Virus record (IMG/VR): IMGVR_UViG_2690316345_000003
Span: 1 to 6,326 of that record
Length of the DNA: 6,326 bases
Direction: 5' to 3' (one strand)
Origin: a virus
Lineage: Duplodnaviria > Heunggongvirae > Uroviricota > Caudoviricetes
The position numbers were made by a program, and so were the translations under genes. Below are positions 1-6,326 of the stretch, piece by piece. The first letter of the stretch is position 1; every line of letters starts with the position of its first letter. A model generated the notes under the pieces. That model did not search any database and was not told the DNA's origin. It saw only the letters and a list, made by a program, of their open reading frames with translations.

Positions 1-115
1 CCTGGCACGGCTGGGACGGAAGTCGCTGTCGTTCTCAAAATCGGTGGAGCTGCATGACAAAGTCATCGGGCATTATCTGAACATAAAACACTATCAATAA
101 GTTGGAGTCATTACC
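1..115 (+). mobile_element. IS1: IS1 insertion sequence, right (3') end only; the window begins inside the element
   Basis: Positions 1-115 match the IS1 right end as I recall it (…CTGGCACGGCTGGGACGGAAGTCGCTG…AAGTTGGAGTCATTACC), ending in the terminal inverted repeat (reverse complement GGTAATGACTCCAACTTATTGATAGTG). Identification is from memory of the IS1 sequence, not a search. Confidence 0.9.
2..100 (+). CDS. insB: IS1 transposase InsB, C-terminal fragment (5' end lies outside the window)
   Basis: Frame 2 translates to [32 protein letters not shown] with stop TAA at 98-100, which matches the InsB C-terminus as I recall it. Confidence 0.8.
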
Positions 116-332
116 CACTCCCACAAACAAAATCATTCCGGGCGATGGGCGCACTCTGGTTGTTCGCTTCGACAAATTCGGCAACGTCGAATTCACTGAA
201 ACCGTTCCTGATGGCGCTCTCGTCTGTACCCTGGACACTTTCCGCCTTTATCTGGAGAAACAGGGCTGGACTCTTGTAAACCGAAGCGCAATTAAAAATA
301 TGACCGTCGAGCAGTTGCTGAGTATTAAATAG
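116..332 (+). pseudogene. 3' fragment of an unidentified protein-coding gene, apparently 5'-truncated at the IS1 junction
   Basis: An open frame runs from inside IS1 to TAG at 330-332 (…PTNKIIPGDGRTLVVRFDKFGNVEFTETVPDGALVCTLDTFRLYLEKQGWTLVNRSAIKNMTVEQLLSIK*). There is no in-frame ATG or ribosome-binding site between the IS1 boundary and residue KNM. Codon choice looks coding and the segment is more GC-rich than the AT-rich kilR/ydaE/racC genes downstream. I do not recognise the protein. Confidence 0.4.
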
Positions 333-378
333 TTTTCTGGAATTTTCTTAATACGAGAAATTTATTAAGGAGATAATT

Positions 379-600
379 ATGATTGCTCATCACTTCGGAA
401 CTGATGAAATACCACGTCAGTGTGTGACTCCTGGCGATTATGTTCTTCATGAAGGCCGGACATATATCGCCTCGGCAAACAATATTAAAAAGCGAAAACT
501 TTATATTCGTAGCCTGACTACAAAAACATGCATTACTGACTGCATGATTAAAGTCTTCCTCGGTCGTGATGGTTTACCTGTAAAGGCGGAGTCATGGTGA
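379..600 (+). CDS. kilR: KilR, Rac prophage cell-division (FtsZ) inhibitor, 73 aa
   Basis: ATG at 379 is preceded by AAGGAG at 368-373. The product [73 protein letters not shown] matches KilR of E. coli K-12 as I recall it in length and near-identical sequence. Confidence 0.85.
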
Positions 601-770
601 TGACTAAGAAAATAAAATGTGCTTACCACCTTTGCAAAAAAGACGTTGAAGAAAGCAAAGCTATTGAAAGAATGCTTCACTTCATGCACGGGACTTTATC
701 AAAAGACGAACCGAGAAAATATTGCAGTGAAGCTTGTGCCGAAAAAGACCAGATGGCACACGAACTTTAA
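600..770 (+). CDS. ydaE: YdaE-like small Cys-rich (putative zinc-binding) Rac prophage protein, 56 aa
   Basis: Not in the ORF track because it is under 60 aa. ATG at 600-602 overlaps the kilR stop (ATGGTGATGA). Translation is [56 protein letters not shown] with two cysteine pairs (C-x4-C … C-x3-C). It matches my recollection of YdaE. Confidence 0.75.
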   Translation: MTKKIKCAYHLCKKDVEESKAIERMLHFMHGTLSKDEPRKYCSEACAEKDQMAHEL

Positions 771-843
771 TTAATTGACTATTCGAAACTGAATTTATGC
801 CAGCAATGGCAGGGATTCGCTCAACCTTAATTAAGGAGAAAAA

Positions 844-1120
844 ATGATTACCAGTTATGAAGCCACTGTTGTAACTACCGATGACATTGTTCACGAGGTT
901 AATCTGGAAGGAAAGCGTATTGGCTACGTGATTAAAACAGAAAATAAAGAAACCCCCATTCACTGTGGTTGATATCGATGGTCCATCAGGCAACGTAAAA
1001 ACACTTGATGAAGGTGTCAAAAAAATGTGCCTGGTGCATATCGGAAAGAATCTGCCCGCAGAAAAAAAAGCCGAATTTCTGGCAACTCTGATTGCAATGA
1101 AATTAAAAGGTGAAATCTGA
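844..1120 (+). pseudogene. racC: racC interrupted by a +1 frameshift in a C5 homopolymer (953-957); would be 91 aa if intact
   Basis: AAGGAG at 834-839 precedes ATG at 844. Frame 1 gives MITSYEATVVTTDDIVHEVNLEGKRIGYVIKTENKETPIHCG* with stop at 970-972. The next frame is open from 932 and reads …PFTVVDIDGPSGNVKTLDEGVKKMCLVHIGKNLPAEKKAEFLATLIAMKLKGEI* with stop at 1118-1120. Removing one C from the CCCCC run restores a continuous 91-aa product matching RacC as I recall it. Confidence 0.7.
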
Positions 1121-1125
1121 AAGAA

Positions 1126-1150
1126 ATAGCCTGCGTATGGCGCAGGCTAT
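1126..1150 (+). promoter_or_regulatory. Perfect 10-bp inverted repeat (stem-loop) in the racC-recE intergenic region
   Basis: ATAGCCTGCG (1126-1135), loop TATGG, then CGCAGGCTAT (1141-1150), which is the exact reverse complement. No U-tract follows, so it is not a canonical intrinsic terminator. It lies about 70 bp upstream of the recE start. Confidence 0.5.
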
Positions 1151-1220
1151 GAACAGTGTGTATCCGGCAAGATTATTCACTGAACAAACGAATTTTAATC
1201 TGAGTTGAGGTTAAAAAACA

Positions 1221-3968
1221 ATGAGCACCGATAAACAAGTTTACCCACTGTATTACGAAGCAAAAAATGACAAAGTAAGAAAACGTCTCGGTATTAAAGG
1301 CGGTTTCTACTGGACTGAAGCGAAAAAATTATCCATTGCCATATCCCGTGGTGCTGTTGCTATTGACGATGCTGGCTACGATGAAGATGACTTTAAAAAA
1401 CCCGTTCGCGTAAATTTCCCCGTCGTGAATGACCTTCCACCGGAAGGCGTGTTTGATACTGAATTCTGCAACCGCTATGAAAAAGGCGGGGAAGATGGCA
1501 TCACCATGATGGCTATATCCTTCAATGACAACATCAACGGTGAAGATGCCACAACTGCTGGCGATGACAACGATGACCCGGACGGAACTATTCCGGATGA
1601 TGTGGAGAAAAGCGAATCCCCGGACAGCGACGATGACTGTTCTGAGTGTGAAATTCCCGTCGCCACTCTGAGCCTTACTCATCGCTTCCTTCACCTCTTC
1701 TTCTTCAGCAAGGATGAAGATGGAAAATACCGGCATCACGCCACACCAGAACAACGCAATAACGTGATCCGTATGGAGATGGACACAGAGGACAGTTACC
1801 TTCAGAGCCTGCTTACTGCTGTGCGCGCCGCACATCATGAACTGGATAAACTGACGAACTATCACCTTAGTCGCCTGGCTGAATCTGTAGGGAAAGCATT
1901 CCCCCACTCTGCAAATCATCGCATCAGCCCGGCTGAATTCGACAAGTTCATTTCCACCTGGATGAAAACTGACTACCTTGATCAGGGCCTGCTGACAAAA
2001 GAATGGCAGAACGGAAATTATGTTTCAGGAATTACCCGTACGCCTTCCGGTGCTAACGCTGGCGGCGGAAATATTACCGATCGTGGTGAAGGATTCAAAC
2101 ATGATAAGACATCACTCGCACGAGATGTAGCCACCGGCGTTCTGGCCCGTTCAATGGATGTGGATATTTATAACCTTCATCCGGCACACGCTAAACGTGT
2201 CGAGGAAATTATCGCTGAAAATAAACCGCCCTTTTCTGTTTTCCGCGACAAATTCATCACCATGCCTGGCGGGCTGGATTATTCCCGCGCCATCGTGGTT
2301 GCGTCCGTAAAAGAAGCACCAATTGGGATCGAGGTTATCCCTGCGCATGTCACTGAATATCTGAACAAGGTGCTGATTGAAACCGATCATGCCAACCCTG
2401 ATCCGGAAATCGTGGATATTGCCTGCGGTCGTTCCTCTGCCCCGATGCCGCAGCGTGTAACAGAAGAAGGAAAACACGATGGTGAAGAAAAACCGCAACC
2501 ATCTTGCGCAATGGCAGATAAACAGGCAACGGCTGAAACAGTGGAACCGGATGCAACTGAACATCATCAGGACACGCAGCCGCTGGATGCTCAGTCACAG
2601 GTAAATTCTGTTGATGCGAAATATCAGAAACTGCGGGCAGAACTCCATGAAGCCCGGAAAACCATTCCGCCCAAAAATCCTGTCGATGCCGACAAATTGC
2701 TGGCTGCCTCTCGCGGAGAATTTGTTGAAGGGATTAGCGACCCGAATGATCCGAAATGGATTAAGGGGATCCAGACCCGCGATTCTGTGTACCAGAATCA
2801 GCCAGAAACGGAACAGAACGACCAGAAAGCGGAACAGAACAGCCCAAATACGCAACAAAACGAGCCAGAAACGAAACAACCTGAACCAGTAGTGCAACAG
2901 GAACCGGAAAAGATCTGCACCGCCTGCGGCCAGAGGAGTGGCGGCAACTGCCCTGATTGTGGCGCGGTGATGGGCGACGCAACATACCAGGAAACATTCG
3001 ATGAAGAGAATCAGGTTGAAGCTAAGGAAAATGATCCGGAGGAAATGGAAGGCGCTGAACATCCGCACAATGAGAATGCTGGCAGCGATCCGCATCGCGA
3101 TTGCAGTGATGAAACTGGCGAAGTCGCAGATCCCGTAATCGTAGAAGACATAGAGCCAGGTATTTATTACGGAATTTCGAATGAGAATTACCACGTAGGT
3201 CCCGGTGTCAGTAAGTCTCAGCTCGATGACATTGCTGATACTCCGGCACTGTATTTGTGGCGTAAAAATGCCCCCGTGGACAACACAAAGACAAAAACGC
3301 TCGATTTAGGAACCGCTTTCCACTTCCGGGTACTTGAACCGGAAGAATTCAGTAACCGCTTTATCGTAGCACCTGAATTTAACCGCCGTACAAACGCCGG
3401 AAAAGAAGAAGAGAAAGCGTTTCTGATGGAATGCGCAAGCACAGGAAAAACGGTTATCACTGCGGAAGAAGGTCGGAAAATTGAACTCATGTATCAAAGC
3501 GTTATGGCTTTGCCGCTGGGGCAATGGCTTGTTGAAAGCGCCGGACACGCTGAATCATCAATTTACTGGGAAGATCCTGAAACAGGAATTTTGTGTCGGT
3601 GCCGTCCGGACAAAATTATCCCTGAATTTCACTGGATCATGGACGTGAAAACTACGGCGGATATTCAACGATTCAAAACCGCTTATTACGACTACCGCTA
3701 TCACGTTCAGGATGCATTCTACAGTGACGGTTATGAAGCACAGTTTGGAGTGCAGCCAACTTTCGTTTTTCTGGTTGCCAGCACAACTATTGAATGCGGA
3801 CGTTATCCGGTTGAAATTTTCATGATGGGCGAAGAAGCAAAACTGGCAGGTCAGCTGGAATATCACCGCAATCTGCGAACCCTGGCTGACTGCCTCAATA
3901 CCAATGAATGGCCAGCTATTAAGACGTTATCACTGCCCCGCTGGGCTAAGGAATATGCAAATGACTAA
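1221..3968 (+). CDS. recE: RecE (exonuclease VIII), 915 aa, 5'-3' dsDNA exonuclease with a C-terminal PD-(D/E)XK nuclease domain
   Basis: GAGG at 1207-1210 precedes ATG at 1221 and a single long ORF follows. From about residue 255 onward the protein closely matches E. coli RecE as I recall it (…GLLTKEW…ANAGGGN…DRGEGF…ARSMD…[12 protein letters not shown]…). The C-terminal domain carries a PD-(D/E)XK signature (RPD at 3609-3611; MDVK at 3639-3650). A C-x2-C-x7-C-x2-C motif lies at 2916-2960. The stop overlaps the recT start. Confidence 0.9.
2791..2910 (+). repeat. Imperfect short tandem repeats (CCAGAAACGGAACAGAAC-like) encoding a Q/E/N/P-rich linker within recE
   Basis: GCCAGAAACGGAACAGAAC (2801-2819), CCAGAAAGCGGAACAGAAC (2823-2840) and GCCAGAAACGAAACAAC (2864-2880) encode [38 protein letters not shown]. 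The antisense track ORF 2595..3194 is a by-product of this repetitive stretch. Confidence 0.5.
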
Positions 3969-4770
3969 GCAACCACCAATCGCAAAAGCCGATCTGCAAA
4001 AAACTCAGGGAAACCGTGCACCAGCAGCAATTAAAAATAACGACGTGATTAGTTTTATTAACCAGCCATCAATGAAAGAGCAACTGGCAGCAGCTCTTCC
4101 ACGCCATATGACGGCTGAACGTATGATCCGTATCGCCACCACAGAAATTCGTAAAGTTCCGGCGTTAGGAAACTGTGACACTATGAGTTTTGTCAGTGCA
4201 ATCGTACAGTGTTCACAGCTCGGACTTGAGCCAGGTAGCGCCCTCGGTCATGCATATTTACTGCCTTTTGGTAATAAAAACGAAAAGAGCGGTAAAAAAA
4301 ACGTTCAGCTAATCATTGGCTATCGCGGCATGATTGATCTGGCTCGCCGTTCAGGTCAAATCGCCAGCCTGTCAGCCCGTGTTGTCCGTGAAGGTGACGA
4401 ATTTAATTTCGAATTTGGCCTTGATGAAAAGTTAATACACCGCCCAGGAGAAAACGAAGATGCCCCGGTTACCCACGTCTATGCTGTCGCAAGACTGAAA
4501 GACGGAGGTACTCAGTTTGAAGTTATGACGCGCAAACAGATTGAGCTGGTGCGCAGCCAGAGTAAGGCTGGTAATAACGGGCCATGGGTAACTCACTGGG
4601 AAGAAATGGCAAAAAAAACGGCTATTCGTCGCCTGTTTAAATACCTGCCTGTCTCAATTGAAATCCAGCGTGCAGTATCAATGGATGAAAAGGAACCACT
4701 GACAATCGATCCGGCAGACTCCTCTGTATTAACCGGGGAATACAGTGTGATCGATAATTCAGAAGAATAA
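3961..4770 (+). CDS. recT: RecT single-strand annealing protein (RecT/Redβ family), 269 aa
   Basis: ATG at 3961 lies 8 nt after an AGGA core (3949-3952). The track's upstream extension from 3904 is rejected because ATG 3955 is only 2 nt from that core. The product [36 protein letters not shown]… matches E. coli RecT as I recall it. The start overlaps the recE stop in ATGACTAA. Confidence 0.9.
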
Positions 4771-4777
4771 TTCAGCC

Positions 4778-4798
4778 TGGCGGTGTAATGCACCGCCA
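4778..4798 (+). terminator. GC-rich 8-bp stem-loop just downstream of recT; possible weak terminator or RNA-stabilising hairpin
   Basis: TGGCGGTG (4778-4785), loop TAATG, then CACCGCCA (4791-4798), a perfect inverted repeat. A TTTTT run follows only after a 12-nt spacer (about 4811-4815), so the terminator assignment is weak. Confidence 0.35.
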
Positions 4799-4826
4799 AC
4801 GCGAGACAGTTTTTATGACAAAAATT

Positions 4827-5021
4827 ATGAGATATGACGATGTTAAACCATGTCCGTTTTGTGGTTGTCCATCTGTTACGGTGAAAGCAATTTCAGGATA
4901 TTACCGGGCAAAATGCAACGGATGCGAATCCCGAACTGGCTATGGTGGAAGTGAAAAAGAAGCACTCGAAAGATGGAATAAACGAACTACTGGAAATAAT
5001 AATGGAGGTGTTCATGTATAA
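4827..5021 (+). CDS. ralR: RalR/Lar restriction-alleviation protein, 64 aa, Cys-rich zinc-finger-like
   Basis: Translation from ATG 4827 is MRYDDVKPCPFCGCPSVTVKAISGYYRAKCNGCESRTGYGGSEKEALERWNKRTTGNNNGGVHV*, which matches Rac RalR (Lar) as I recall it, with a C-x2-C … C-x2-C motif. No strong Shine-Dalgarno sequence is present; in-frame ATGs at 4788 and 4815 are possible but less consistent with the known protein. Confidence 0.8.
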   Translation: MRYDDVKPCPFCGCPSVTVKAISGYYRAKCNGCESRTGYGGSEKEALERWNKRTTGNNNGGVHV

Positions 5022-5202
5022 AATAACTGCCACTATTGAAAAAGAAGGTGGCACTCCTACTAACTGGACAAGATATTCAAAATCTAAATTAACGAAATCA
5101 GAATGCGAAAAAATGCTCTCAGGGAAAAAAGAAGCAGGCGTGTCCAGAGAGCAGAAAGTAAAGCTGATAAATTTTAATTGCGAGAAACTTCTGTCCTCGT
5201 GA
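5014..5202 (+). CDS. ydaC: YdaC-like small Rac prophage protein of unknown function, 62 aa
   Basis: GGAGG at about 5003-5007 lies 6 nt before ATG 5014. Translation is MYKITATIEKEGGTPTNWTRYSKSKLTKSECEKMLSGKKEAGVSREQKVKLINFNCEKLLSS*. The start overlaps the ralR stop (ATGTATAA). The track's start at 4942 is rejected in favour of the ribosome-binding-site-supported ATG. Confidence 0.65.
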   Translation: MYKITATIEKEGGTPTNWTRYSKSKLTKSECEKMLSGKKEAGVSREQKVKLINFNCEKLLSS

Positions 5203-5257
5203 GTTGCATTATATACAAATTAGAACTTCATAGCTGATTATTAAAAATCAACCACAC

Positions 5258-5286
5258 CCGCCAGTATTCTGTATATTTACTGGCGG
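5258..5286 (+). promoter_or_regulatory. Perfect 9-bp inverted repeat with an 11-nt AT-rich loop upstream of xis; candidate operator or RNA structure
   Basis: CCGCCAGTA (5258-5266), loop TTCTGTATATT, then TACTGGCGG (5278-5286), the exact reverse complement. It sits in the AT-rich ydaC-xis gap directly upstream of the xis ribosome-binding site (AAGAGG at about 5296-5301). No U-tract follows. Confidence 0.45.
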
Positions 5287-5302
5287 TCATATCGTAAGAG
5301 GT

Positions 5303-5590
5303 ATGGCAATGAATCTTGTGACACTCAAAACGTGGGGAAAACTCAGATATCCGGATAACCCACCATCAATATCAACGCTGAGACGATGGGCAAGGAATGG
5401 AAACATTTATCCTGCACCTGAACTACACGGGAGGAGTTACAGGGTGGTTCCGGAAGCTTTCTATATCAACCCCAATAAGGTTGATACCGATATAACACAC
5501 CATCAGCCTAATGGGCGACAAGGGAGAGACAGTCCGTTACTGGAGAAGTTAAAACATGCAGCGGAAAAAATACGATCCCAATTTGCCTAA
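5303..5590 (+). CDS. xisR: Excisionase (Xis family), Rac XisR-like, 95 aa
   Basis: The product MAMNLVTLKTWGKLRYPDNPPSISTLRRWARNGNIYPAPELHGRSYRVVPEAFYINPN… has the lambda Xis pattern (…TLxxW…S.xT.RRW.R…P.P…GR.Y…). It sits immediately upstream of the integrase and overlaps it by 35 nt, as in lambda xis-int. An alternative start at ATG 5309 is possible. Confidence 0.7.
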   Translation: MAMNLVTLKTWGKLRYPDNPPSISTLRRWARNGNIYPAPELHGRSYRVVPEAFYINPNKVDTDITHHQPNGRQGRDSPLLEKLKHAAEKIRSQFA

Positions 5591-6200
5591 AAACTTAACA
5601 TATCGAAGGAGGGACAAAGCATATTACTGGCGCAACCCTCTGACGAAAGAAGAATTTACACTAGGTAAAATTTCAAGAAGAGATGCAATCGCGCAGGCAA
5701 TTGAAGCAAATCACTATATATACAAAAACTACTCTACTGCTGCCTTAATTGAAAAACTTAAAGGGTTCGACTCATTTACTATGGCAGACTGGATTGAACG
5801 TTACAAAACGATTCTTATAAGGAGAAAAGTGTCCAGAAATACTTATAAAATTCGGGTAAATCAACTGGAGACAATAAAAGAAAAATTGGGAGAGATTTTA
5901 CTGACAGAAATAACCACTCGCCATATTGCCGAGTTTCTTGATTTGTGGATTGAAGGAGGGAAAAACACAATGGCAGGATCAATGCGTTCTGTGTTGTCTG
6001 ATATGTTTCGTGAGGCCATTGTTGAAGGACGTATATCTCAAAATCCAGTAACGCCAACAAGAGCACCGAAAATAGTAGTTACAAGAGAACGACTGAAACT
6101 AAAGACATACAACTGCATCAGGGAGGCAGCAGATCAACTTCCGGCATGGTTCCCATTAGCTATGGATTTAGCCCTTGTAACAGGACAACGTCGCGAAGAC
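5556..6200 (+). pseudogene. intR: Lambda-family tyrosine integrase, N-terminal 215 codons only, truncated by IS1 insertion
   Basis: GGAG at 5543-5546 precedes ATG 5556. The product aligns with the lambda Int N-terminal and core-binding domains (…LSDMFREAIVEGRISQNPVTPTRAPK…AWFPLAMDLALVTGQR versus lambda …LSDAFREAIAEGHITTNHVAATRAAK…CWLRLAMELAVVTGQR). The frame then runs straight into IS1 at 6201 and stops at 6227 after eight IS1-encoded residues. The catalytic-domain residues downstream of that Arg, including the Tyr nucleophile, are absent from the window. Confidence 0.85.
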
Positions 6201-6326
6201 GGTGATGCTGCCAACTTACTGATTTAGTGTATGATGGTGTTTTTGAGGTGCTCCAGTGGCTTCTGTTTCTATCAGCTGTCCCTCCTGTTCAGCTACTGAC
6301 GGGGTGGTGCGTAACGGCAAAAGCAC
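6201..6326 (+). mobile_element. IS1: IS1 insertion sequence, left (5') end only; the element continues beyond the window
   Basis: GGTGATGCTGCCAACTTACTGATTTAGTGTATGATGGTGTTTTTGAGGTGCTCCAGTGGCTTCTG… is the IS1 left terminal inverted repeat and the start of insA as I recall them. It is in the same orientation as the copy at 1-115. Confidence 0.9.
6256..6326 (+). CDS. insA: IS1 InsA, N-terminal fragment (3' end lies outside the window)
   Basis: From the GTG start at 6256 the frame reads (M)[23 protein letters not shown]…, the known InsA N-terminus with its C-x2-C motif. Confidence 0.8.
   Translation, partial: [23 protein letters not shown]

Follow-up and report, generated by a model that had tools for sequence, protein, structure and literature searches.

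Gene content of the window and its prophage context

The DNA analysed here, referred to below as the window, is 6326 bp long and, by sequence identity, represents the entire contig CYCA01000098.1 of the draft Escherichia coli assembly GCA_001285045.1. The genes of this contig form the early-left part of a lambdoid prophage resembling Rac and are arranged in the order of kilR, ydaE, recE (915 aa), recT, ralR together with the RalA antitoxin sRNA, a DUF1187 ORF, xis, and int. The left end of the window lies inside a phage gene of the Rha family and the right end lies 126 nt into a copy of IS1; both contig ends are assembly breaks and not ends of the element. The features on which the analysis is centered are listed below.

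4827-5021, + strand: ralR, the toxin of the RalR type I toxin-antitoxin system, of which RalA is the antitoxin
5309-5590, + strand: xis, 93 aa
5556-6227, + strand: integrase ORF, 223 aa
5556-6200, + strand: native 5' part of int, codons 1-215, identical to residues 1-215 of the intact 358-aa allele
6192-6200, + strand: CGCGAAGAC, the last 9 nt of native int, encoding R213, E214, and D215; IS1 target site
6201-6227, + strand: IS1-encoded tail of the ORF, eight residues (GDAANLLI) and a TAG stop codon
6201-6326, + strand: left end of IS1, nt 1-126 of 768, with the terminal inverted repeat; the R100 copy is annotated as IS1B-family transposase

The integrase ORF, the beginning of IS1 at 6201, and an intact xis gene had all been described in the first-pass annotation, and all three are borne out by the present analysis. 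The 223-aa ORF has been deposited as CTW40669.1, "integrase [Escherichia coli]". The 93-aa Xis protein matches Pfam PF07825 (Exc) with E = 6.5e-14 over profile positions 3-56 of 77, and an alternative start at 5303 would give a 95-aa version. The xis region is 100% identical to that of E. coli 2014C-3061, whose annotation lists this 93-aa ORF as excisionase WP_001311878.1; the protein shares 29% identity with lambda Xis. The xis gene is located upstream of int, and the last 35 nt of xis overlap the beginning of int.

Among complete genomes the closest counterpart is the prophage of E. coli 2014C-3061, which is 99.92% identical to window 115-6200; window 4800-6200 is 100% identical to 2014C-3061 and three other strains, two of these three being listed as O45:H2 and O111:H8. 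The 2014C-3061 element is a lambdoid prophage of ~43 kb that extends from yebY to pphA and contains regulatory, replication, lysis, terminase, portal, capsid (head), and tail genes, a few of them frameshifted. The window had also been called a prophage remnant. This label is unsupported: it describes a property of the draft contig, and a 99.9%-identical relative carries a lambdoid prophage of ~43 kb. Alignment to the prophage of 2014C-3061, otherwise 99.9% identical, begins only after window 1-114, at a break inside the Rha-family regulator gene. Two lambdoid modules are probably joined here as a mosaic, and the left assembly break is located here as well.

Several other properties of the region were noted. 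The RalA sRNA is present in full length at window 5020-5198 on the - strand (Rfam RF02694, 219 bits, E = 3.7e-53) and is antisense to nearly all of the DUF1187 ORF (5014-5202, + strand), so that the same DNA is used on opposite strands. The 915-aa product of recE (1221-3968, + strand) has Pfam matches only at residues 53-197 (Exonuc_VIII) and 664-899 (DUF3799/PDDEXK), and its middle part includes a long acidic, Gln/Pro/Glu-rich stretch of low complexity. The annotated recT start at 3961 overlaps the recE stop codon, and a longer recT ORF is open from 3904. The same prophage with its flanks is also found in assembly GCA_900448355.1 (UGAB01000002.1), in which int, recE, copD, and yobB are each split into several ORFs; this looks like the result of assembly indel errors rather than biology.

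The truncated integrase and its junction with IS1

From position 6201 to the end of the window the sequence is identical to nt 1-126 of the IS1 of plasmid R100 (126 of 126 nt), and the same segment matches at least 5000 plasmid records at 99% identity or higher. The canonical IS1 terminus (IRL) and the insA-proximal sequence are both present in the window. The GTG at 6256 is presumably the insA start codon, and the contig stops 71 nt into that gene; insA and insB are oriented in the same direction as int. The sole sigma-70-like site in 5150-6326 is located at 6208-6235 (+ strand), inside the left end of IS1 and upstream of the insA GTG, and apart from this site a promoter and terminator scan of 5150-6326 gave nothing above the shuffled expectation. 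Since the promoter-like site and IS1 both run in the direction of int, read-through transcription from int and xis would enter IS1.

The two DNA-binding domains of a lambda-type integrase are found in the window ORF. Residues 3-58 match the arm-binding domain (Pfam PF09003, Arm-DNA-bind_1, E = 3.3e-7) and align with the lambda Int N-domain chain 1kjk, and residues 90-169 match the central, SAM-like core-binding domain (Pfam PF22022, Phage_int_M, E = 1.1e-10), with residues 75-173 aligning to 2oxo. The catalytic domain (PF00589, Phage_integrase) gave no Pfam match in the window ORF. When the intact 358-aa allele was searched with phmmer against the lambda Int structures 5J0N, 1Z1B, and 1Z1G, residues 8-353 were aligned with E = 1.6e-72. 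Residues 111-213 of the two proteins align without gaps, and the numbering therefore coincides in this part. The active-site residues are assigned as follows.

R212 (codon CGT, 6189-6191, + strand), lambda R212: retained, the only catalytic residue kept
K235, lambda K235: absent from the window ORF
H313, lambda H308: absent from the window ORF
R316, lambda R311: absent from the window ORF
H338, lambda H333: absent from the window ORF
Y347 (nucleophile), lambda Y342: absent from the window ORF

Of the complete R-K-H-R-H/W-Y active site, then, the window ORF holds the first arginine alone. The isolated catalytic domain (1AE9) aligns to residues 177-353, and the truncated product keeps ~39 of the ~180 catalytic-domain residues. 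The first-pass annotation had proposed that the frame is cut immediately after the conserved arginine, within the catalytic domain and with loss of the tyrosine nucleophile. The alignment with lambda Int agrees with the greater part of this proposal, as it places Y347 and four other active-site residues beyond a junction that lies after the arginine and inside the catalytic domain; the word "immediately" has to be given up, since the three native residues R-E-D intervene. Their codons CGC GAA GAC (6192-6200) belong to int itself, as the intact allele reads ...TGQRREDITNM, i.e., ...LVTGQRREDITNMRF..., and the break after D215 corresponds to lambda ...TGQRVGD/L. Judged by its residues, the window ORF is a fragment of a lambda-type integrase gene and not a functional member of the family, and its product is predicted to be incapable of acting as a recombinase.

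Origin of the interruption and fate of the int 3' half

The window ends inside IS1 because short-read assemblers break contigs at repeats. The earlier statement that the remainder of the catalytic domain is missing is true of the contig and of the ORF. It need not hold for the genome: a reciprocal junction with the full 3' half of int is found in SRR23873551. The far side of the insertion was searched for by exact look-up of the ORF expected after the IS1 right end, which starts at M219 and encodes 140 aa. A simple insertion predicts a right junction in which the terminus of IS1 is joined to CGCGAAGAC-ATAACGAAT..., as in the sequences GTCATTACC-CGCGAAGAC-ATAACGAATATGCGG and GTCATTACCCGCGAAGACATAACGAATATGCGG, the latter running from IS1 through the second copy of the target into int from codon 216. 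The ORFs looked up were those of 140 aa (M219), 121 aa (M238), and 120 aa, a 151-aa edge form, nine natural variants of the 140-aa ORF, and one variant of the 121-aa ORF. The 140-aa ORF is carried by SRR23873551 and two metagenomes, and the 121-aa ORF by a frameshift-rich NCTC assembly and contig edges.

The contig from the Logan assembly of SRR23873551 (L004) begins with CACTATCAATAAGTTGGAGTCATTACC, which is IS1 nt 742-768 and thus the exact right terminus of the element. It is followed by the 9 nt CGCGAAGAC, which in the window stand directly before IS1, and then by int codons 216-358, yebY, copD, yobA, holE, yobB, and exoX. The left copy of the 9-bp direct duplication CGCGAAGAC is located in the window (6192-6200) and the right copy in L004, which is a different sample. 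Window 1-6200 joined to L004 from position 37 to its end is colinear with the intact prophage/chromosome junction of 2014C-3061 at 99.5% identity, and translation of the joined sequence gives a 358-aa Int that shows no difference from the intact allele. The event was very probably a simple IS1 transposition with a 9-bp target duplication, as read from two junctions that come from different samples.

In the genome from which the window was derived, the 3' half of int probably still lies beyond IS1, a conclusion drawn with less assurance than that on the mode of insertion. The alternative is that an adjacent deletion associated with IS1, or recombination with another IS1 copy, has removed or relocated the int 3' half, possibly together with attL/yebY. 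We regard this alternative as unlikely, though deserving of consideration. None of the 3' ORFs or variants is on record from GCA_001285045.1 or ERR137800 by exact look-up in the index of called genes, and the lack of a 140- or 121-aa 3'-fragment ORF there counts for the alternative insofar as the same look-ups found such ORFs in other samples. However, absence from a called-gene index is weak evidence, as the choice of start codon, a single SNP, or the limits of the index would hide the ORF, and the exact reciprocal junction with the matching 9-bp duplication in SRR23873551 indicates that the simple-insertion allele is real. The int gene is inactive whether its 3' half is retained or deleted, and the functional conclusion is unchanged.

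In another E. coli assembly (GCA_012292085.1), contig AASDFV010000054.1 starts exactly at CGCGAAGAC (positions 1-18), with nothing upstream on the contig. The int allele of this strain differs from that of the window by a Q-to-R variant and by TTC instead of TTT at codon 221. The contig start hints that a repeat might occupy this site in that strain as well, whether by common ancestry or because the site was targeted more than once.

The interrupted allele is rare. The junction was not found in 5,426 complete E. coli genomes when window 4800-6326 and a 60-nt junction probe were used as queries, which gave chance partial matches to IS1 flanks only. A 45-nt left-junction sequence had no exact match in the GTDB species-representative genomes, a set that holds one genome per species and is hence little informative in this respect. 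The 223-aa allele was present on 3 contigs in a large collection. The rarity of the allele is in keeping with a recent, probably neutral or mildly deleterious accidental event and not with selection. A literature search for ERR137800, SRR23873551, CYCA01000098, GCA_001285045, and CTW40669 did not find these accessions.

The same rarity bears on whether the truncated protein has been put to use. It may be argued that a domesticated, non-catalytic Int of 223 aa and the intact Xis have been retained for binding att or related DNA, since both DNA-binding domains are complete by Pfam and xis is intact; from the arm-binding and core-binding domain content, att binding by the truncated protein is conceivable. 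We nevertheless hold this proposal to be very improbable, as the allele was found in none of the 5,426 complete E. coli genomes and the large collection has it on only 3 contigs, and the ~39 orphan catalytic-domain residues may render the product unstable. Its extension, in which the domesticated Int would have a regulatory role or would block, in a dominant-negative manner, the integration or excision of related phages, is just as doubtful. A stable truncated Int that occupied the att arm and core sites together with Xis might confer a dominant-negative or immunity-like effect against phages that use the yebY site, or might act as a transcriptional regulator, and we attach very little weight to this prospect. 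Should the truncated Int bind DNA in some functional capacity, this would amount to a small case of domestication at the domain level; nothing here points that way.

An assembly artefact, i.e., a chimeric contig end in a genome with an intact int that reads ...CGCGAAGACATAACGAAT across 6180-6220 without IS1, might be suspected where a short-read draft contig breaks off in a repeat of many copies, and its probability is next to negligible: the independent Logan assembly of ERR137800 reproduces the junction base for base (100% over 3237 nt), the break falls exactly at the IS1 terminus, and a reciprocal junction with the canonical 9-bp duplication exists.

Consequences for excision and comparison with related elements

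The following course of events is proposed from the sequences. A lambda-like prophage with a Rac-type early region, located between yebY and pphA in E. coli, would have received IS1 in its int gene by transposition, and the insertion would have duplicated the 9-bp target CGCGAAGAC. The int frame would then end with 215 native residues and 8 IS1-encoded residues, so that the arm-binding domain, the core-binding domain, and Arg212 are kept. The product, without Lys235, His313, Arg316, His338, and Tyr347, should be unable to cleave or rejoin DNA. Lambda-type excision requires a catalytically active Int, Xis, and host factors; Xis bends the DNA and directs Int and has no catalytic activity of its own. 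Since the catalytic residues of Int are lost and Xis cannot replace them, the prophage is not expected to excise and is probably locked in place. It could escape from this state if an Int of the same specificity were supplied in trans, or if IS1 were precisely lost between the 9-bp repeats.

In its intact form the integrase closely resembles lambda Int, with the same three-domain layout, all six catalytic residues, and identical numbering to residue 213, and in the window, as in lambda, xis precedes and overlaps int. The window copy differs from lambda in that it ends after residue 215 with Arg212 as its only catalytic residue, and in the attachment site, which adjoins yebY and not gal-bio. 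The insertion resembles simple IS1 transposition in the 768-bp element, the canonical left end, and the 9-bp duplication when the window and L004 are combined; the window itself holds 126 nt of IS1. The Rac prophage of E. coli K-12 (intR-xisR-ralR/ralA-recT-recE-kilR) has the same gene order and gene families as the window. Rac sits at ttcA, whereas the present element is located at yebY/pphA.

Disruption of a prophage integrase by an IS element is an ordinary and already well-documented event. Integrases of the same family interrupted by other elements were encountered among the look-up results. In a Shigella sonnei data set (L020, positions 1-60) an IS3-family element adjoins codon 208. In S. 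boydii (L023 and L024, positions 1430-1500) an IS3-family element is found at M219, its terminal A serving as the first base of the ATG codon, and an element ending in ...TTCAACAAAGCC is located at codon 216 in a contig from a metagenome (L019, positions 1-34). An IS hotspot near the Arg212 codon was considered, since four different IS junctions lie within 16 codons, and was rejected as ascertainment: the junctions cluster because the M219 ORF was used as bait, and any insertion between M203 and M219 yields the same 140-aa ORF. Int is also disrupted in the lambdoid prophages Sp3, Sp11, and Sp12 of O157 Sakai, which like the present element combine an Exo VIII/RecT-type recombination module with a broken int gene (PMC2669165). 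What sets the present case apart from the disrupted integrases of Sakai and Shigella is the inserted element, IS1, and the insertion point after D215, which is particular to this allele.

The importance of the interruption extends little beyond annotation. When a draft contig stops within a repeat, a gene left "truncated" there should not be taken for one shortened by deletion. For the biology of these phages, IS1 insertion into int adds to the ways in which a lambdoid prophage with recET, ralR/RalA, and kilR may become fixed in the E. coli chromosome.
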